DNA from: Fimbriimonadaceae bacterium
GTDB lineage: Bacteria > Armatimonadota > Fimbriimonadia > Fimbriimonadales > Fimbriimonadaceae
Length of the DNA: 64,000 nucleotides
Reading direction: 5' to 3'
NCBI GenBank assembly: GCA_019454125.1
Contig: CP075365.1
Span: 488,218-552,217, forward strand
Made by a program: the position numbers and the translations under genes. Positions 16,463 through 61,823 of this stretch are shown one piece after another. Numbering within the stretch: the first letter of the stretch is position 1; the number at the start of each line of letters is the position of its first letter. The notes beneath the pieces are model-generated. The model was given only the letters and a program-made list of their open reading frames with translations. It was not told where the DNA came from and ran no database searches.

Positions 16463-16496
16463 ACAGGCTCCCGGCTTTGACAAGCCGGGGGCCTGT
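16463..16496. terminator. bidirectional stem-loop terminator between convergent genes
   Basis: acaggctcccggctt-tgac-aagccgggggcctgt forms a 15-bp stem (one G-U pair) with a 4-nt loop. It lies between the OMP gene (+) and the proteasome-beta gene (-). Confidence 0.7.
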
Positions 16497-17231
16497 TCAG
16501 TCTAGGTCGGCCATGGCGGCCAAAGTCTCTTCGTCCGACAGGCTGCGCGACCCGTTCCGGTCCAGCACGTAGACCGCAGGCGGGACTTTGCGGAGGCCCC
16601 CGGTAGCCGAGTCCAAATCGGCGGCGATTTCCAGCATCCTGAGCGCGTCTTGCAGCACCTGGTGTTGGTTGCGGGCCGCCCAGGGCCCTTTCGTCCGGAT
16701 CAGATATTCAAAGACCCCCCGGATCCGCTCCGAGCCGGAACCCGCGCACGCATAGTCCGCATTTTGGAACCGGGCGCCCGCCGCATCGAAAAAGTAAACG
16801 CCGAAGCGGTCGGCCCGAGGATCATAGGCGGCTGCGATCGGAAGGAACATACCGATGCCGGAGGCGGCGGCCGGAATGTTGCCTTGGAGCGCCCGCGAGA
16901 TCTCCATCAGTTTCCCCTCGGTCGAGATCTCAACCAAGTTCAGCCTCTCGTAGTACTTGAAGGCGTGGCGAAGGTAGCGCGAGACCTCCAAGGATCGGCC
17001 ATAAGCGCCGCTCACCGCGACCACAGTGAACCGGTCCAGCGGCACGATCTTGTCCGCATGGTCGAACATGATCAAGTTGCCCGCGGTCGCGCGGCGGTCT
17101 GCCACGACGAGGCAACCGGCATCATAGTGCAAGGCGATGACGGTGGTGCCGTGCACCTCGCCAATGGGGCCGGCGGCCACGGGCTCGAAGCCGACCAGCT
17201 CCCGAAACGACGCGGCGTTCGGCGCTGTCAC
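16497..17231 (-). CDS. prcB: proteasome beta-type subunit (PrcB-like)
   Basis: 244 aa. A propeptide is followed by HG/TTVIALHYDAGCLVVADRRATAGNLIMFDHADKI. Counting from the first Thr gives T1, D17 and K33. The protein aligns along its whole length with actinobacterial PrcB as I remember it. Confidence 0.85.
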   Translation of the reverse strand: MTAPNAASFRELVGFEPVAAGPIGEVHGTTVIALHYDAGCLVVADRRATAGNLIMFDHADKIVPLDRFTVVAVSGAYGRSLEVSRYLRHAFKYYERLNLVEISTEGKLMEISRALQGNIPAAASGIGMFLPIAAAYDPRADRFGVYFFDAAGARFQNADYACAGSGSERIRGVFEYLIRTKGPWAARNQHQVLQDALRMLEIAADLDSATGGLRKVPPAVYVLDRNGSRSLSDEETLAAMADLD

Positions 17232-17413
17232 TGGCCTGATCGCTGGCGGTACTTTTTCGCCTGCTCCGGGTCGACGCGCTTCATGCGCTTTAGCAGCTCG
17301 TTCGGAGCGTCCGGACGACCGATATCGGGCTTAGTGGGCCCCTCGTCGTCCCCCGTCTTGCGTGACGGCTCTTCGAATTCCCGGCGGAGAGTGCGGTCGA
17401 ATGAAATCGTCAT
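17228..17413 (-). CDS. UBact/Pup-like small protein modifier
   Basis: 61 aa, low-complexity and likely disordered. The C-terminal half ...PNELLKRMKRVDPEQAKKYRQRSGQ matches the UBact consensus as I recall it (LLKRM+.VDP.QA++YRQR[ST]G[EQ]). It has 4-nt ATGA-type overlaps with both neighbours. Confidence 0.75.
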   Translation of the reverse strand: MTISFDRTLRREFEEPSRKTGDDEGPTKPDIGRPDAPNELLKRMKRVDPEQAKKYRQRSGQ

Positions 17414-18894
17414 GTGTCTCCTTTTACTACGGTCTCCAGCTCGCTGATCGCGCGGGCGTTTTCGATCCCCGGGCCATAGTCCTTGCCGGGGTCGAGCGCC
17501 AACCGCACCTCGCGGCCCTCATCACTGAGGCTAAGGCTGCCCCAGGATACTCCGGCGAGGCTCGGGAGAAACTCCTTGACCGCCTGGGAGCGGACCCGGG
17601 CGCGGTTGCTCTCGAAGACGCTCGTCATTCGTGCCCGGACTATTGCGTCCTCTGGAAATGGGTCGATTCGGGCCATTTGGGCGAGGGCGGGCACGAGTCC
17701 CTCGTCGGGGTCCAGGTCGTGGTAGGCCAGGTCCAGTGAGCGGAGGGTCGGGTCGTTCCAAGCCAGCCCTTCCGACTCGCGAAACTCATCGAGCAGGCGT
17801 TTCTTGGCGAGCCAGTCGATGCGCCGGGCCGCTCTGTCCCCCTCCCCAGCCAGGTCGGCGAGCAGCGATTCAGCCTCGTCGCAGACGGCGAGGAGCTCTG
17901 ACGCCTCAGGATCGGCGACGAACGTGCGGCGAAAGGCATCTGTGTAAGACTCAATGATCTGGCGGGCGGTGGTCCAATTCGCGCCCTCCAGGTCGATCCG
18001 GCCCTCTCCCCGATGCGACCGGCTCACGCTCTGGGCCGCTTTCGGCGGGCTGGGGATGCGCCAAACCGGGGCCTCTTCGGCCATCGCTAAGAGCAAGGCG
18101 ACCTTGACGAGTCCGGCCTTCCGGTGGGTGGCGGCGGGAAGCATGTTGGCGTCGCCGCTGATGACGTGCAGGCGGATCCACTGACCGGGGTCGCCGTGGG
18201 GCTCGTCCCGAGTGTTGAAGACAGGGCGGCGGTAGAGGGTCTCCGCGTTTGCCGCCTCGACAAAGAAATCTGCCCTTTGCGAAAGCTGGTAGTCACAAGG
18301 TCCTAGCGCCTCGCTCCCGACCTTGCCCGCGCCGCACAGAGCGATCCTCGCCACGAGCATCGGCATGACGGCGCGGTAGAGCGCCTCGAAGCCGAGCGGC
18401 CTCGGGACAAGGTAGCTCTCGTGGGTGCCATAGGAGGCACCGTGCCCGTCCGAATTGTTCTTGAAGACCTTTGTCCGGAGCCCCGTCAGGGCTTCGTAGG
18501 CTTCGGCCGTCCGCCGAAGCCACTCCTCGCCCGCCATGTCGTGGAGCGTGAGCTCTTCCAGGCTCCAGCATTCCGGCGTGGCGTATTCGGGATGGCCGTG
18601 GTCGTTGTAAAACCGCGCGCCGTTGGGCAACACCCGGTCTGATCGGACGGCCTGGTCGGACTGATGGACCCTGCCTGTATCGAACTTGGCGTCTTCCGGA
18701 TCGAATGCGAGCCGATCTAGCTTGAACCCGCGAAGGTCTGCCCTGGGGCTCTCAAAACGGTAGTCCCAACCTACGAACGCCCGCGCCGGAAAGGCGCGGA
18801 CGAATTCGGCACTGTCCTCGACCTGGTCTTCCGCCCCGCGGCCCTGGATCGAGAGCCCGTACTCGGTCTCGATCCCGGCCAGGACGCGGAACAT
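17410..18894 (-). CDS. dop: Pup-ligase-family enzyme, Dop-like (deamidase/depupylase type)
   Basis: 494 aa. GIETEYG, NGARFYNDHGHPEYATPEC, FKNNSDGHGASYGTHESY and NTRDEPH are motifs of the PafA/Dop family. The insertion WDYRFESPRADLRGFKL...(about 35 aa) before NGARFY resembles the Dop-specific loop rather than PafA. Confidence 0.85.
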   Translation of the reverse strand: MFRVLAGIETEYGLSIQGRGAEDQVEDSAEFVRAFPARAFVGWDYRFESPRADLRGFKLDRLAFDPEDAKFDTGRVHQSDQAVRSDRVLPNGARFYNDHGHPEYATPECWSLEELTLHDMAGEEWLRRTAEAYEALTGLRTKVFKNNSDGHGASYGTHESYLVPRPLGFEALYRAVMPMLVARIALCGAGKVGSEALGPCDYQLSQRADFFVEAANAETLYRRPVFNTRDEPHGDPGQWIRLHVISGDANMLPAATHRKAGLVKVALLLAMAEEAPVWRIPSPPKAAQSVSRSHRGEGRIDLEGANWTTARQIIESYTDAFRRTFVADPEASELLAVCDEAESLLADLAGEGDRAARRIDWLAKKRLLDEFRESEGLAWNDPTLRSLDLAYHDLDPDEGLVPALAQMARIDPFPEDAIVRARMTSVFESNRARVRSQAVKEFLPSLAGVSWGSLSLSDEGREVRLALDPGKDYGPGIENARAISELETVVKGDT

Positions 18895-20178
18895 TTATCT
18901 GAGGACCACGAAGCTTCCCGTCGTCGGGAAGGGGAAGCCGGCTGGCGGCGTGTCCACCACGAAATCGCCGGTCCGGAGAATCCCGTTCGGCTTTGTAAAG
19001 GTGATCCGGGCATTGGCCACCTTGTCCGCACTGCCGTCTCGAATCTGTTCGAGGCTGAAGAGCTTCACCGTGCCCCCTGTCGCCGAGGTCAGCGAGGCGA
19101 CGCCTTGCCAAAGGGCGGTGACCTTGCCGGTCGCGTTGCGCTGGAAGGCCACGACCTGCATGGCATTCTGGTCGCGCGTCCCGGGCAGGAACACCATGGC
19201 GAAGTCAGGGATGTTCGAAAGGACTTCGGTATAGGGGCGGAAGAAGCCTTGGAGGGCGACGATCTTCGCCTCGTCGACCAGCGGGTCTCGCGGGTCGGGC
19301 TCGCGGACCGTATAGGTCCCCGGTGCCGGGCGTCCGCCGAGCACTGTGGCCTTCTTCAAGATGCCGGTCTCAATCACGACCGGGTCGAGCAACTCGAAGG
19401 AGTCGGTCTCGTCGTACCCCGCGGAGATGCCAATGCTGTCCCCGGAGAAGTGGACCATCTCGGCGGGCTTGCCGTTGCCCAGTTTCGGCCGCTGGGCCTC
19501 GGGCATCGTCGTGACGTCGAAGGCGACCATGTCGCTCAGGAACCCATTGATCTTCTTGTTGTACTCCGCGTAGTTCTCGTCGATGAACTGCTGGCGGTTG
19601 AAGATGATGCCGTTGACGTTGTCGAACCGCAGCATCGCGTCGTTCAGGTTGACCTGGATGGTCGTCTGACGGCCTGGGAAAAGTTTCGCGTCGAGGTCGA
19701 AATACGGCCGGAATTCGATGGGAGGACCGCCATAGACGGTGCTGAAACCGCTCGCACCCTGCTCGTCCATCTGGGCGATCTCCAGGGGGAACTGGGTGTA
19801 GGTCTTAAATGGGATCCCAGCGGCCACCGGAACGCTGAACACAGCTTGGTTAATGGTGTAACCATCGAGCTGGATGCGGACCGGGGAGGCAGAACCCTGC
19901 TGCTCCTTAGGTTCAAAGTCGGTCGGCGAATTGTAGATTCGCGCGTTGCGGATGACCGCGATCTGCGAGCCGACGGCGCGCCGGCCTTGACCGGACAGGT
20001 ACAGGATTTGAACCTGGGCGTTATTGCCAAGGTTCACGGTCGGGATGCCGCGGCCACCGCCGCCGCCACCACCGTTTCCTCCACCACCACCGTTGTTGCC
20101 GTTACTATTCTCGGCGCTAACGCCGCCACAGCCGATGACAAGCGCACCAGCGACGAATACAAGACACCACTTCTTCAA
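18895..20178 (-). CDS. lipoprotein with Gly/Asn-rich linker (unknown family)
   Basis: The track ORF runs to 20247 (GTG). The in-frame TTG at 20178 is preceded by GAGGTG at a 6-nt spacing and gives MKKWCLVFVAGALVIGC|GG (lipobox), followed by ENSNGNNGGGGGNGGGGGGG. Its stop codon abuts the ATG of the Dop-like gene with zero spacer. Confidence 0.55.
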   Translation of the reverse strand: MKKWCLVFVAGALVIGCGGVSAENSNGNNGGGGGNGGGGGGGRGIPTVNLGNNAQVQILYLSGQGRRAVGSQIAVIRNARIYNSPTDFEPKEQQGSASPVRIQLDGYTINQAVFSVPVAAGIPFKTYTQFPLEIAQMDEQGASGFSTVYGGPPIEFRPYFDLDAKLFPGRQTTIQVNLNDAMLRFDNVNGIIFNRQQFIDENYAEYNKKINGFLSDMVAFDVTTMPEAQRPKLGNGKPAEMVHFSGDSIGISAGYDETDSFELLDPVVIETGILKKATVLGGRPAPGTYTVREPDPRDPLVDEAKIVALQGFFRPYTEVLSNIPDFAMVFLPGTRDQNAMQVVAFQRNATGKVTALWQGVASLTSATGGTVKLFSLEQIRDGSADKVANARITFTKPNGILRTGDFVVDTPPAGFPFPTTGSFVVLR

Positions 20179-20343
20179 GCCGTCCACCTCAGTGACCCAG
20201 GGCACGCGCAACGATACCTGACAAGAAGCCCCGTCAGGGCGGCGCACTGTTACTACTGGGACGAGCCAGGCTCCCGAAATCGTTCATCAAGCCGAAGAAA
20301 GTCGGCCCGAGGAGCGGGTCCCGTGTAAAATGTGGGGTGTCTC

Positions 20344-58596: not shown

Positions 58597-60960
58597 GTGG
58601 CCGACCACACCGACCAGGAGCGAGAGCCCGGCGACCCGCTAACCGAATACCGTCAAAAACGCAGCTTCGACGTGACGTCGGAGCCCGCGGGCACGGTGGC
58701 CCAGGGCCAGGGCAACCTCTACGTCGTGCAAGAGCACCATGCCCGGCGGCTGCACTGGGATTTGCGGCTTGAGTACAAGGGGGTGCTGCTGAGTTGGGCG
58801 GTGCCGAAAGGGCCGCCGGAGCGCCACGGCCTCCGCCGTCTCGCGGTGAAGGTGGAGGACCACCCGCTGGAGTACGCGACCTTCGTCGGAGAAATCCCGA
58901 AGGGCAACTATGGCGCGGGCCACGTCCACCGCTGGGACATGGGCACTTGGCGGCCGATCGGCGAGGACGAAGTCGAGACCCAGCTCCGCGCCGGCAAGCT
59001 CGAGTTCGTCATCGAAGGCGAACGGATGAAGGGCGACTTCGTCCTGGTGCTCACCGACAAGGAAAAGGACGAGTGGCTTTGGATGAAGATGAAAACGAAG
59101 TCTCATAAGGAGACGCCGAAGCCCAAGCCCGTCGAGCCCCCACCGCCGAGCCCCGTCCTGACCGGCCCGAAGCAGCGCATACCGGACGAGCTCGAACCGA
59201 TGCTTTGCACCCGCGTCGACCAGGTGCCTAGCGCCGAGGGCTGGGTCCACGAGATCAAGTGGGACGGCTACCGCGTGCTCGCCTTTGTGAAGGAATGGGG
59301 CGTCGAATTCAAGACGCGCAACGGCCTCCCCATCTATTTTTCCAAGCTCGCGAACTTGATGGCCCGGGTGCTCCCGCCGGATTCGATCATCGACGGCGAG
59401 GTCGTGGTCTTCGACGAGAAGGGCGTGAGCCGCTTTCCCTTGCTCCAGCGGGCCCTCGCAGAAAAGAAGACGGACCCGGCCTGCTTCATCGCCTTCGACC
59501 TGCCGTTCGCCCAGGGCGTGGACATCCGCCAAAAGCCGCTTGTCGAACGCAAGGCCTTGCTCCAAGAGTGGCTTGCCGTCAACCAAGACCCGAAGCTTCG
59601 CTATTCCGCCCACCACGCCGGAGATGGGAGGCCCCTCTTCAGCCGGGCCTGCGAGATCGGCCTTGAAGGCATTATCAGCAAAAAGGGCGAGAGCGCCTAT
59701 CGCTCGGTGCGGAGCCCCGAATGGGTGAAGGTCCGTTGCGAGAAGAAGATCGAGGTTTGGGTCGGCGGCTTCATGCTGATGGCGAACTCGACCGATATGG
59801 TGGGCAGCATCCTGGTCGGGACGCGTGGCGCCGACGGCCGCTTGCAGTACCTGGGGAAGGTGGGCTCCGGCTTCTCAGAGGCGCTGCGGCGCAAGCTGTT
59901 CAAGGAATTCCGGCGGCGCGAGCGGCCCCCTTTCGACCCCGAGCCCGGGTCGATGGAGTCCAAGGACGCGGTTTGGGTCGAGACCACCCACCTCGCCCAG
60001 GTCCAGTTTTTGGACTGGTCCGGCGAGGGGCTCCTGCGCCAGGCGAAGTTGGTCGGGATCGAACGATCCCAGACCCACCGGCTACAGCTGCCGTCAAACC
60101 CAATAGTGAAGATCTCAAACCCCGATCGGATTATTGATCCCTCCAGCGGCCACACGAAGGGCGAGGTCGCGGCCTATTACCAGGCGGTCGCAAAGCAGAT
60201 GCTTCGCTTCGTGGGGAACCGCCCGATCTCGATGGTCCGCGCGCCGGAAGGGATCACCGAGGCCACGTTCTTCCAGAAGCACCGGATGGCCGGCCTACCG
60301 GACTCGGTCCATAGCGTGACCGTCAAGGAGTCCGATGAGAAGGAGGAGCCCTATGTCTATGTGGACTCCGCAGAAGGGCTCTTAGCGCTGGTGCAGATGG
60401 GCGTCTTGGAGTTCCACTCGTGGGGTTCGCAGGCCGACGACCTGGAGCGTCCGGACGTGCTCGTCTTCGACCTCGACCCGGGTGACGACGTCGAGTGGCG
60501 GCGCGTGGTCGAGGCCGCCCACCACGTTCGCGGTGCGTTGCAAGCCCTCGGGTTTGAACCGCTCACGAAAGTCACAGGCGGAAAGGGCATCCACCTTGTC
60601 GTCCCTGTCGATCCGAGCCTGGAGTGGCCCGAGGCGAAAGCGTTCTGCGAAAACTTCGCCAAGAACCTTTCCGCTCGCGATCCAAAGCGGTACCTGGCAA
60701 AACTTTCGAAAGCGGCCAGGCAGGGCCGGATCCTCATCGACTATCTGCGGAACGGCCGGGGTGCGACGGCGGTGGCCCCTTACAGCCTTCGCGCCCGGCC
60801 GAACCTGCCCGTGGCCCTCCCGGTGGATTGGGACGAGTTGGGCGTGCTTGGGCCTGGCGCGATCACGCCTAGCGAGGCGGTGCGAAGGGTGGAAGAGGCC
60901 GACGACCCATGGGCCGACTACGAAAAGTGCCGCCGGCCCTGGCCAGCAAACCTGCCTTAG
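58597..60960 (+). CDS. ligD: multidomain DNA ligase D (3'-phosphoesterase + ATP-dependent ligase + polymerase/primase)
   Basis: 787 aa with a GTG start. PE domain (YVVQEHHARRLHWDLRLE), ligase adenylation motif EIKWDGYR and Pol/primase domain (LVFDLDPG..., KVTGGKGIHLVVP). Confidence 0.93.
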   Translation: MADHTDQEREPGDPLTEYRQKRSFDVTSEPAGTVAQGQGNLYVVQEHHARRLHWDLRLEYKGVLLSWAVPKGPPERHGLRRLAVKVEDHPLEYATFVGEIPKGNYGAGHVHRWDMGTWRPIGEDEVETQLRAGKLEFVIEGERMKGDFVLVLTDKEKDEWLWMKMKTKSHKETPKPKPVEPPPPSPVLTGPKQRIPDELEPMLCTRVDQVPSAEGWVHEIKWDGYRVLAFVKEWGVEFKTRNGLPIYFSKLANLMARVLPPDSIIDGEVVVFDEKGVSRFPLLQRALAEKKTDPACFIAFDLPFAQGVDIRQKPLVERKALLQEWLAVNQDPKLRYSAHHAGDGRPLFSRACEIGLEGIISKKGESAYRSVRSPEWVKVRCEKKIEVWVGGFMLMANSTDMVGSILVGTRGADGRLQYLGKVGSGFSEALRRKLFKEFRRRERPPFDPEPGSMESKDAVWVETTHLAQVQFLDWSGEGLLRQAKLVGIERSQTHRLQLPSNPIVKISNPDRIIDPSSGHTKGEVAAYYQAVAKQMLRFVGNRPISMVRAPEGITEATFFQKHRMAGLPDSVHSVTVKESDEKEEPYVYVDSAEGLLALVQMGVLEFHSWGSQADDLERPDVLVFDLDPGDDVEWRRVVEAAHHVRGALQALGFEPLTKVTGGKGIHLVVPVDPSLEWPEAKAFCENFAKNLSARDPKRYLAKLSKAARQGRILIDYLRNGRGATAVAPYSLRARPNLPVALPVDWDELGVLGPGAITPSEAVRRVEEADDPWADYEKCRRPWPANLP

Positions 60961-61823
60961 TCACCGGACGCTTCCTTGCTCTTGACGCTTTCCGTGAGGA
61001 GCGAGGCGAGATCGATGACGTTTGCCGCTTCGGGCAGCGCGGTGGCTTCGTCCGCCGAGACTTTCGGGGTCAAGCCTCCGGACTTAACTTTTTCATCGAC
61101 CCAGTTCATTAAGGCCTCGCGATATTGATCCTTATACTGGCCCGGGCTCCAGTCAACGACCATCGCCTCGACCAGTTGTTCCGCAAGCAGCATTTCGCGT
61201 TCGGAAATGTTGTAAGCCTCAGGTTCTTGGTCGGGGAGGTTGTAGTTCTTAAGGCTGCGCATTTCTGACGCGTAGCGCATAAGCATGACGACCAGGCCAG
61301 GGCCGCGCGGAAGGAGCGCGGCGAGGTATTCCCGAGTTCGGATGGCCACCTTTGCGATGCCGATCCGCCCCGTCCTTTCCATGACCTCGCGCAAGAGGAC
61401 GTAACCTTTCTCCGTCTTCTTCTTTGGGACCAGGATATACGGCTTTTCGTAGAACATCTCATCCACTTGGTCACGGTTCACGAAGGCCTGGACTTCAATC
61501 TGCTTAAGCGACTCGACCTGCAAACCTTTTAGTTCCTCGTTGCTGATAACGATCAAGTTTTCGTCGCTATACTCATAGGCGCGGACGATTTGGTCCCAGG
61601 GCACTTCTTCCCCCGTGACTTGGTTGACGCGCTGGTACTTGACGCCTGCATTGTTGCGGCTGTCCAAGAGCTTAAAGTGGATCTCGTCTCGCTGCTCTAA
61701 GCTGTAAAGCGAGACCGGGACATTGACCAGGCCGAACGAGATGCTGCCCGTCCAAATCGGACGGCCCGTCGACTCTGAACCGTAGCCTTCTTCGTTCTCG
61801 TCGTTGGAAGTTTTCCTGGCCAT
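60957..61823 (-). CDS. ku: Ku protein (NHEJ DNA-end binding)
   Basis: 288 aa. RPIWTGSISFGLVNVPVSLYS is the hallmark bacterial Ku N-terminus. It converges on ligD with a 4-nt overlap (TTAG). Confidence 0.93.
   Translation of the reverse strand: MARKTSNDENEEGYGSESTGRPIWTGSISFGLVNVPVSLYSLEQRDEIHFKLLDSRNNAGVKYQRVNQVTGEEVPWDQIVRAYEYSDENLIVISNEELKGLQVESLKQIEVQAFVNRDQVDEMFYEKPYILVPKKKTEKGYVLLREVMERTGRIGIAKVAIRTREYLAALLPRGPGLVVMLMRYASEMRSLKNYNLPDQEPEAYNISEREMLLAEQLVEAMVVDWSPGQYKDQYREALMNWVDEKVKSGGLTPKVSADEATALPEAANVIDLASLLTESVKSKEASGD

Follow-up and report, generated by a model that had tools for sequence, protein, structure and literature searches.

Does a Dop-type enzyme encoded beside a small Pup-like tag and a proteasome beta subunit, with ligase, ATPase and alpha subunit all missing nearby, make up a reduced tagging system, or is it part of a complete system whose genes are dispersed? 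The question is raised by a minus-strand locus in a Fimbriimonadaceae genome, within a stretch of 64 kb that was analysed as a whole (the window). The UBact–proteasome system is the Gram-negative counterpart of the actinobacterial Pup–proteasome system, and its gene cluster in Gram-negative bacteria was reportedly described by Lehmann et al. in 2017. We know of no UBact system that has been characterized experimentally, nor, to our knowledge, has covalent attachment to substrate lysines been demonstrated for any UBact. Armatimonadetes are listed as having a UBact system together with alpha and beta subunits of the Gram-negative type (PMC5666114), and UBact loci in Armatimonadetes are a kind already described. 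The analysis below shows that the locus is a real, ordinary piece of this known tagging–proteasome system, with a rearranged gene order.

Layout and coupling of the locus

Three minus-strand open reading frames had been proposed as an operon in the initial annotation, and all three are present (Table 1). Their coupling is real, but the unit does not stop at three genes, as the TAA stop codon of a fourth gene, X, directly abuts the ATG of Dop with zero gap. An ATGA-type overlap had been assigned to each junction; read off the sequence, the Dop/UBact junction is indeed an ATGA overlap, while the UBact/PrcB junction reads GTGA and PrcB starts with GTG. The coupled unit thus consists of four co-oriented, translationally coupled genes, X-Dop-UBact-PrcB. 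The element following PrcB had been described as a strong terminator. A stable hairpin is present (14 pairs, predicted folding energy of -29.8 kcal/mol over a 66-nt stretch, z = -3.8), and equal stability was reached in 0 of 200 shuffles, but its U tract, UCUUU, is weak and a generic terminator scan left it uncalled. It is likely a terminator and possibly a bidirectional one.

Table 1. Positions of the four genes and the hairpin in the window.
Feature	Position	Strand	Basis
Gene X, predicted lipoprotein, 436 aa	18895..20205	-	signal peptide, VIGC lipobox, Gly-rich linker
Predicted Dop-type deamidase/de-conjugase, 494 aa, Pup_ligase family	17410..18894	-	PF03136, TIGR03688
UBact, Pup-like tag, 61 aa, C-terminus ...DPEQAKKYRQRSGQ	17228..17413	-	PF20513, NF033388
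PrcB-type 20S proteasome beta subunit, 244 aa	16497..17231	-	PF00227, TIGR03690
GC-rich hairpin 3' of PrcB stop codon, convergent genes either side	16463..16496	-	RNA fold

Gene X gave no match to Pfam, NCBIfam or PDB sequences. It lies directly upstream of Dop in 35 of 35 loci of the window's type (solo-type loci, described below), and sits where canonical loci have Mpa. In four genomes with gene calls its spacing from Dop runs from a 1-nt overlap to a 2-nt gap. The flanking YceD-PlsX-FabH genes are also conserved. The position of X in Mpa's place, and an adjacency to Dop kept across the family even as X diverged to 38% identity, could mean that the four-gene unit is tied to the cell envelope and that X, more than a neighbour by synteny, works together with the tagging and protease genes or is their substrate. 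We consider such a tie improbable: a protein with a signal peptide and lipobox should be exported, whereas the products of the other three genes are cytoplasmic; no domain is recognizable in X; and with the YceD-PlsX-FabH flanks conserved, plain synteny suffices to explain why X adjoins Dop.

A Dop ortholog

The large enzyme matches PF03136 with 413 bits (Pfam gathering cut-off 25) over residues 5-454. The initial annotation had called it a member of the PafA/Dop family, allowing that it might fall outside the Dop/PafA clade; in a neighbour-joining tree it falls inside the Dop clade, in a clade found in 50 of 50 bootstrap replicates beside canonical Armatimonadota Dops. It scores higher against the Dop model TIGR03688 (322.9 bits) than against the PafA model TIGR03686 (244.2 bits). 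Its Dop score does not reach the TIGR03688 equivalog cut-off of 492.3, but neither do those of canonical Armatimonadota Dops (for example 461 bits at locus L064); the NCBIfam equivalog cut-offs were trained on Actinobacteria, and the window's Dop and PrcB score below them. Among PDB entries, Dop structures match best, at 274 bits compared with 182 for PafA.

Individual motifs agree with this assignment. The enzyme carries the GhExE nucleotide motif, as GIETEYG, and a predicted catalytic Asp within YNDHGHPEY. Both have aligned counterparts in Dop of Acidothermus (structure 4B0R/5LRT), and so do THESYL, its form of the HExY motif, NTRDEPH and RLHVISGDANM. The Dop-loop, an insertion that PafA lacks, is present: residues ~41-84 are matched to the loop of AcDop in the alignment, and alignments to PafA begin only at residue 85. 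At the positions that discriminate Dop from PafA (Hecht et al. 2020, Table 1; PMC7947786), the enzyme has V88 (Phe in PafA), H99 without the Val insertion, P107, F210 (His in PafA) and S450 (Asp in PafA), all of Dop type. Its deviations, N97, G100, E213 and L220, also occur in those Armatimonadota Dops that are partnered by a PafA.

A drift of this lone enzyme towards ligase function was suspected from the PafA-like alpha-loop Glu (E213) and the other oddities. It was rejected, since a comparison of the two groups found E213 and these oddities also in Dops with PafA partners. Judged by its residues, the window enzyme is a clear Dop ortholog that carries no ligase-like changes.

The tag and the beta subunit

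The 61-aa protein, which had been annotated from its UBact-type C-terminus, scores above the cut-offs of both tag models (PF20513, 78.8 bits against 27.8; NF033388, 77.6 bits against 35). None of the Pup sequences in the PDB matches it, even with E values up to 10 allowed. The UBact gene sits between Dop and PrcB. The possibility that it might lack conserved homologs is put aside by the 80 Armatimonadota loci that were obtained by a scan seeded with UBact, in which each species was represented by one genome. Across these loci the ...YRQRSG[Q/E] end is invariant and the C-terminal 25 residues are nearly so, with Q and E endings both found in both layouts, canonical and solo. The window's tag ends in KKYRQRSGQ. 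A tag remnant of ...RSGE had been expected, but the encoded end is RSGQ; this terminal Gln would first have to be deamidated to Glu for the tag to be ligated. The middle part of Pup binds Mpa; UBact from solo-type loci is conserved over its whole length, middle part included, as strongly as in complete loci.

The beta subunit matches PF00227 with 71 bits (Pfam cut-off 22.4) and TIGR03690 (20S_bact_beta) with 123.9 bits, below an equivalog cut-off of 191.9 that PrcB of the canonical locus L064 also misses (146.5 bits). Its closest solved structures are PrcB chains from Rhodococcus and M. tuberculosis. A 28-aa propeptide precedes Thr1, which follows HG at residue 29, and the rest of the predicted catalytic set (Asp17, Lys33) is intact, as are Gly47, GSGS and DSATGG, bearing out the T1/D17/K33 assignment made earlier. 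None of Thr1, Asp17, Lys33 and the GSGS and D.DSATGG motifs varies among the PrcB sequences compared, 36 of solo type and 41 canonical. PrcB, too, is no less conserved than in complete loci. With the UBact C-terminus, the PrcB catalytic residues and the Dop-type residues all kept, functional constraint on the three proteins is undiminished.

Two layouts in Armatimonadota

The absence of PafA, PrcA and an Mpa/ARC-type ATPase from the window, as noted in the initial annotation, was borne out by searches of its six-frame translation and with Pfam. Queried with the window's Dop and PrcB, phmmer --max found no paralog in the window better than E = 1. Armatimonadota PafA, PrcA and Mpa queries found no match there, nor did a profile of 120 Fimbriimonadaceae-type PrcA sequences or the Mpa from locus L087. 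Pfam searches of ten large window ORFs returned only PriA, UvrD, LigD, MCP and similar families, and the 9 kb to the right of the window contain cytochrome oxidase genes only and no partner gene.

Comparison of 80 or more Armatimonadota loci revealed two layouts. Most Armatimonadota lineages have the canonical cluster order Mpa-Dop-UBact-PrcB-PrcA-PafA: in 36 loci Dop-UBact-PrcB is followed by PrcA and by the second family member PafA, and in most of these Mpa lies just upstream of Dop (not in L064 or the Abditibacterium loci). Gene calls at the Chthonomonas-type loci L084 and L085 gave the full six-gene order. A further 35 loci, the window's included, are of the Fimbriimonadaceae type and contain X-Dop-UBact-PrcB only; they represent about 35 species, and in 35 related species a span of ±10 kb around the locus contained no partner gene. 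The unit is also present in the closed genomes CP075366.1 and CP021423.1. Intermediate layouts exist as well, with local Mpa missing (L064), with the order PrcA-Dop-UBact-PrcB (L026) or with UBact-PrcB alone (L024).

These comparisons bear on the idea that the three genes are a decaying duplicate, a redundant remnant of a complete canonical locus elsewhere in the genome. Parts of pupylation loci are duplicated in some bacteria (PMC3511204), and one lineage has near-identical PafA genes both in the cluster and alone (L100-L103). Decay is, however, at odds with catalytic and binding motifs that all remain whole and do not vary among the roughly 35 species with this layout, and with the conserved tight coupling of the genes. 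Moreover, each partner found in the family occurs as a solitary gene that no further copy of Dop, UBact or PrcB adjoins, and no solo-type genome yielded two UBact loci in the UBact-seeded scan. A duplicate origin is thus largely refuted, and we regard it as highly improbable.

Stand-alone partner genes in relatives

Partner genes were found away from the core unit in relatives of the window genome. The Fimbriimonadaceae MAG GCA_019694835.1 carries X-Dop-UBact-PrcB on contig 22 and stand-alone PrcA and Mpa on contig 223, where PrcA lies 3.6 kb from an Mpa-type ATPase with both Prot_ATP_ID_OB domains and AAA. The Dop (MBX7132036) and PrcA (MBX7135728) belong to the same MAG, so that their linkage, like that of Mpa, presumes correct binning. 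A search seeded with PrcA from L026 returned more than 100 short PrcA homologs of ~225 aa, among them proteins from Fimbriimonadaceae MAGs and from the complete genome of Fimbriimonas ginsengisoli (CP007139), in which PrcA is a stand-alone gene. Fimbriimonadaceae-type PrcA genes stood alone in the loci inspected.

For PafA the connection is less direct. Stand-alone PafA genes of Armatimonadota form a clade (P0363/L092 and L093-L099), and at locus L134 a Fimbriimonadaceae-type PrcA is followed by an isocitrate/isopropylmalate dehydrogenase family gene, a GidA-family gene and PafA, with 2.5 kb between PrcA and PafA. Among the genomes compared, none with a solo-type locus was found to carry PafA as well, and the link consists of L134 and the position in the tree. 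The best 120 matches to the PafA of L064, which reach down to 56% identity, include no Fimbriimonadaceae names, and the neighbours of PafA on contig L092 gave no shared genes useful for taxonomic placement.

It is also possible, although we think it unlikely, that the system is truly reduced: the lineage, or at least this 2.65-Mb genome, would have lost PafA, PrcA and Mpa, Dop would both attach and remove UBact (or UBact would act unconjugated), and PrcB would form a beta-only particle like HslV, Anbu and BPH. Such a loss would account for the lack of any partner in the 64-kb window, or in the 10 kb on either side of the locus in 35 relatives, and for the lack of matches on contigs of closed or near-closed solo-layout genomes among the best 120 PafA and 120 PrcA matches listed, but absence among the best 120 matches is weak evidence. 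Solo-type Dops do form a long branch and score lower against TIGR03688 (323 bits compared with 461 for canonical Dops), and Planctomycetes are reported to have single-copy Dop/PafA homologs (PMC7947786). On the other hand, a MAG with the identical four-gene unit has stand-alone PrcA and Mpa, F. ginsengisoli has PrcA, no residues have shifted towards PafA relative to Dops with a PafA partner, and the whole of UBact, including the part matching the Mpa-binding middle of Pup, is conserved as in complete loci.

A more specific form of reduction would have PafA, and perhaps PrcA and Mpa, gone from a small-genome Fimbriimonadaceae lineage, leaving the Dop-type enzyme as the sole UBact enzyme; acting in both directions through the shared gamma-glutamyl-phosphate chemistry, it would feed a PrcB particle without a canonical alpha ring. 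Pup-like tagging with a single enzyme would then exist in nature; we hold this to be a long shot.

A probably dispersed UBact–proteasome system

We favour, with reasonable confidence, the interpretation that the window holds the conserved core of a UBact–proteasome system whose ancestral six-gene cluster was broken up, its partners lying elsewhere and not lost. With the cluster broken up in Fimbriimonadaceae, the 'missing' partners of the window genome are most likely encoded elsewhere in it. The initial annotation had offered a split system and a reduced version as alternatives; MAG GCA_019694835.1, the PrcA of F. ginsengisoli and the clade of stand-alone PafA genes favour the split. Given stand-alone PrcA, Mpa and PafA in relatives, the term 'minimal' fits the local gene order but probably not the system.

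By analogy with the Pup pathway, Dop would deamidate the C-terminal Gln of UBact to Glu and would also strip UBact from modified lysines. PafA, encoded elsewhere, would phosphorylate this Glu and link it to substrate lysines; an Mpa/ARC-type AAA ATPase, likewise encoded elsewhere, would recognize UBact and unfold the substrate; and PrcB, together with the separately encoded alpha subunit PrcA, would form the 20S particle that degrades it. The retention of Dop-UBact-PrcB as a coupled unit, with PrcA, PafA and Mpa as stand-alone genes, would then be a family-level rearrangement and not a functional reduction.

As found, the locus matters little in itself, and would become important only if the ligase proved absent from the genome. 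It does provide a documented case, over about 35 species, of a UBact–proteasome cluster taken apart, and points to the pairings that selection holds together, deamidase with Gln-ended tag and tag with catalytic subunit. Pipelines for annotation and genome mining that recognize the system from neighbouring genes would err in scoring Fimbriimonadaceae as incomplete. Because F. ginsengisoli is cultivable, the family could serve as a source of a test organism.

Comparison with known systems

The closest known relative is the Gram-negative UBact cluster, with which the window shares a UBact that has the ...YRQRSG[QE] end and is encoded between a Dop homolog and PrcB. It differs in that only Dop-UBact-PrcB are clustered, a lipoprotein gene takes the usual place of Mpa, and the Fimbriimonadaceae have PrcA, PafA and Mpa as stand-alone genes at other sites.

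The actinobacterial Pup system (mpa-dop-pup-prcB-prcA...pafA, as in Mycobacterium tuberculosis) has the same dop-tag-prcB order, the same enzyme family, the same Gln/Glu alternation at the end of the tag and a Thr1 beta subunit. Its own cluster can be interrupted: mpa is separable from the core by unrelated genes in M. tuberculosis. The same holds for pafA in Actinobacteria (PMC3511204). Unlike the actinobacterial system, the window encodes UBact and not Pup, and prcA is uncoupled from prcB. We know of no description of such uncoupling for Actinobacteria.

In having one Pup_ligase-family gene locally, the window resembles the Planctomycetes with their single-copy Dop/PafA-related enzyme (Hecht et al. 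2020, PMC7947786); the window Dop, however, is not an outgroup to both clades, has the Dop-loop and Dop residues, and nests beside Dops partnered by PafA. The beta-only proteases HslV, Anbu and BPH share with the window a lone Ntn-hydrolase beta-type gene without an adjoining alpha gene. In contrast to these, the window PrcB belongs by sequence with the 20S beta subunits of bacteria (124 bits for TIGR03690 compared with 17 bits for HslV), and matching alpha subunits exist in Fimbriimonadaceae.

Organization of the coupled unit

The initial annotation described three overlapping minus-strand open reading frames encoding a PafA/Dop-family enzyme, a 61-aa protein with a UBact-type C-terminus and a PrcB-like proteasome beta subunit. 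All three were present, and Pfam and NCBIfam profile searches upheld their identities. The stop codon of the upstream gene X, however, directly abuts the Dop start codon, and the coupled unit therefore consists of four genes rather than three. The X protein has a signal peptide, a VIGC lipobox and a glycine-rich linker, with no family match in Pfam or NCBIfam and no PDB match. Of the two 4-nt overlaps described as ATGA-type, the Dop/UBact junction reads ATGA and the UBact/PrcB junction GTGA. The UBact C-terminus, ...KKYRQRSGQ, ends in Gln and not in the Glu (RSGE) that had been assumed. In PrcB, whose best PDB matches are Rhodococcus and M. tuberculosis PrcB, a propeptide of 28 residues with a final Gly precedes Thr1, and Asp17 and Lys33 are in place as first noted. 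The proposed strong terminator is a stable hairpin (-29.8 kcal/mol, z = -3.8), but its 3' tract is merely UCUUU.

Coordinates of the four-gene unit and of other features in the window
Feature	Position	Strand	Evidence
Hairpin	16463-16496		
PrcB, 244 aa	16497-17231	minus	PF00227, 71 bits; bacterial 20S beta model, 124 bits
UBact, 61 aa	17228-17413	minus	PF20513, 78.8 bits; NF033388, 77.6 bits; both far over cut-off
Dop-type enzyme, 494 aa	17410-18894	minus	Pfam Pup_ligase, 413 bits; NCBIfam Dop 323 vs PafA 244 bits
X, 436 aa as called	18895-20205	minus	Predicted lipoprotein; TAA stop abuts Dop ATG
127-aa protein (= locus L001, 5656-6039)	22856-23239	minus	Precomputed match PF24729 (Acb2_Tad1_hairpin)
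LigD, full-length	58597-60960	plus	Phosphoesterase, ligase, primase-polymerase domains
Ku	60957-61823	minus	Adjoins LigD

Elsewhere in the window, the gene for the protein with PF24729, a domain of phage anti-CBASS/Thoeris nucleotide sponges, lies on a bacterial chromosome adjoining two Band_7 genes. LigD and Ku form a non-homologous end-joining pair.

UBact loci across Armatimonadota

Scanning one genome per species with three UBact seeds yielded 80 loci, all of Armatimonadota type, and their gene content sorts into two classes. The canonical class, Dop-UBact-PrcB-PrcA-PafA, was found in Capsulimonadaceae, Armatimonadales, Abditibacterium, HR16-type and Chthonomonas-type genomes. Mpa lies directly upstream of Dop in most canonical loci, though not in those of Abditibacterium, and gene calls showed the complete six-gene order in two Chthonomonas-type loci (L084 and L085, reached via PafA match P0349). 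The solo class, lipoprotein-Dop-UBact-PrcB, comprises 35 loci including the window, all of Fimbriimonadaceae/Fimbriimonadales type. X sits exactly at the canonical Mpa position and is present in 35/35 solo loci; PrcA, PafA and Mpa were absent within 10 kb of every one. Locus L064 is intermediate, with five genes and no Mpa nearby (family scans upheld its Dop, PrcB, PrcA and PafA), as is the short contig L026 (3-2850), where the alpha gene precedes Dop in the order PrcA-Dop-UBact-PrcB. Still more fragmented is L024 (9992-10926) of an Armatimonadota MAG, where UBact-PrcB lies alone amid unrelated glycosyl-hydrolase and transferase genes and Dop is missing within 10 kb. Evidently, repeated rearrangements of the cluster have occurred in Armatimonadota.

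A PafA scoring about 960 bits against that of L064 stands alone in four loci (L100-L102, L164) and lies in a five-gene cluster in L103, which suggests a duplicated ligase or a very recent rearrangement in this lineage. Two typical Armatimonadota UBact loci, L008 and L053, lie on contigs titled Methyloversatilis discipulorum and Janthinobacterium lividum, probably through mis-binning or mislabelling of MAG contigs. Armatimonadota Mpa-type ATPases (L084, 4758-6566; L087, 14334-15986) end in ...RNII or ...RNVI, without the penultimate-Tyr motif (GQYL) that actinobacterial Mpa uses to dock on the alpha ring; UBact systems may have another mode of docking.

Conservation of the unit

The UBact C-terminus, ...DPDQAK[KR]YRQRSG[QE], does not vary in either layout; Gln- and Glu-ended tags number 25:10 among solo and 20:16 among canonical loci. 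Thr1, Asp17, Arg19, Lys33, Gly47, GSGS and DSATGG of PrcB are likewise invariant (36 solo-type and 41 canonical sequences). This invariance rules out a decaying remnant, and we give very little credence to a decaying duplicate of a complete locus. Sequence conservation also argues that the solo tag still meets the partners that it has in complete loci.

Type of the large enzyme

The window enzyme is recorded as QYK56366.1, on a 2.65-Mb contig, and in MAG GCA_026129715.1 (contig JAHCHM010000002.1). Its top solved-structure matches were Dop proteins, at 274 bits with an alignment beginning at residue 3, against 182 bits for PafA structures, whose alignment starts only at residue 85 because the window enzyme has the Dop-loop insertion. 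We aligned 39 solo enzymes, 32 Dops with a PafA partner and the 32 PafAs of those loci to reference Dop/PafA, and read the discriminating positions given by Hecht et al. 2020 (PMC7947786). The window enzyme has the Dop state at V88, H99 (without the PafA insertion), P107, F210 and S450. N97, G100, E213 and L220 at first suggested drift toward a ligase, an idea rejected since these deviations are common to PafA-partnered Dops. Neighbour joining placed the solo enzymes in one clade (50/50 bootstraps) beside canonical Armatimonadota Dops, and all PafAs elsewhere. Judged by sequence, the window enzyme is orthologous to Dop and shows no sign of having turned into a ligase.

Search for the missing partners

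Homolog, profile and large-ORF searches bore out the reported absence of PafA, Mpa/ARC and PrcA from the 64-kb window. Its six-frame translation, compared with the window's own Dop and PrcB, held no second Pup_ligase or proteasome homolog; other Armatimonadota proteins as queries found no PafA, PrcA or Mpa in the window, which also lacked matches to a Fimbriimonadaceae-type PrcA profile or a Fimbriimonadaceae Mpa and, among its large ORFs, any Mpa-like AAA ATPase. Cytochrome oxidase genes occupy the 9 kb past its right end.

The partial PrcA of L026, nearest relative of the solo type, retrieved more than 100 short alpha-subunit homologs (~225 aa), including Fimbriimonas ginsengisoli (complete genome) and several labelled Fimbriimonadaceae. 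The F. ginsengisoli gene stands alone amid housekeeping genes, and PrcA is also stand-alone on two further long contigs. In MAG GCA_019694835.1, PrcA and an Mpa-type ATPase, which has the AAA domain as well as both proteasomal-ATPase OB domains, are stand-alone genes 3.6 kb apart; contig 22 carries the same unit as the window (439-aa X, Dop (P0034), 61-aa UBact and PrcB). PrcA and Mpa are thus dispersed in a genome with an identical operon.

The evidence on PafA is more indirect. Of the best 120 matches to a canonical PafA query, six had no near relative among the PafAs of canonical loci. P0363, which belongs to these six, stands alone, and a metagenome scan seeded with its group returned seven closest relatives, 7/7 stand-alone. 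The scan also returned locus L134, which has the order Fimbriimonadaceae-type PrcA, isocitrate/isopropylmalate dehydrogenase family gene, GidA-family gene, PafA; its PafA and the stand-alone PafAs fall inside the Armatimonadota PafA clade (neighbour-joining tree). Among the matches listed, none linked PafA to a genome with a solo-type operon, and absence from lists of the best 120 matches carries little weight.

The initial annotation left open a split or a reduced system. Dispersed PrcA and Mpa, placed in the same genome by a single binned MAG and by the pattern across the family, favour the former, and the partners are probably encoded elsewhere in the window's own genome; their real loss there is unlikely.

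Predicted pathway and relation to known systems

By analogy with the Pup pathway (PMC3511204, PMC7947786), Dop would deamidate the last residue of UBact from Gln to Glu, and would also strip UBact off lysines. Separately encoded PafA would join UBact-Glu to substrate lysines, Mpa would recognise the tag and unfold the substrate, and PrcB with separately encoded PrcA would form the 20S core.

Among Gram-negative phyla, Armatimonadetes included, UBact accompanied by Dop and proteasome genes is an already described kind of system, with curated Pfam and NCBIfam families for UBact; the original paper is reportedly Lehmann et al. 2017. Armatimonadetes carry Gram-negative-type alpha and beta subunits (PMC5666114), and their drafts "one or both" of Dop/PafA (PMC7947786). 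The window unit varies the layout of this known system and does not represent a new kind. Two of its features look undescribed: the separation of prcA from prcB throughout the family, and a lipoprotein gene at the Mpa position. In Mycobacterium tuberculosis, mpa can be parted from the core by unrelated genes. pafA, too, is separable in Actinobacteria, where unrelated genes can part it from the core (PMC3511204).
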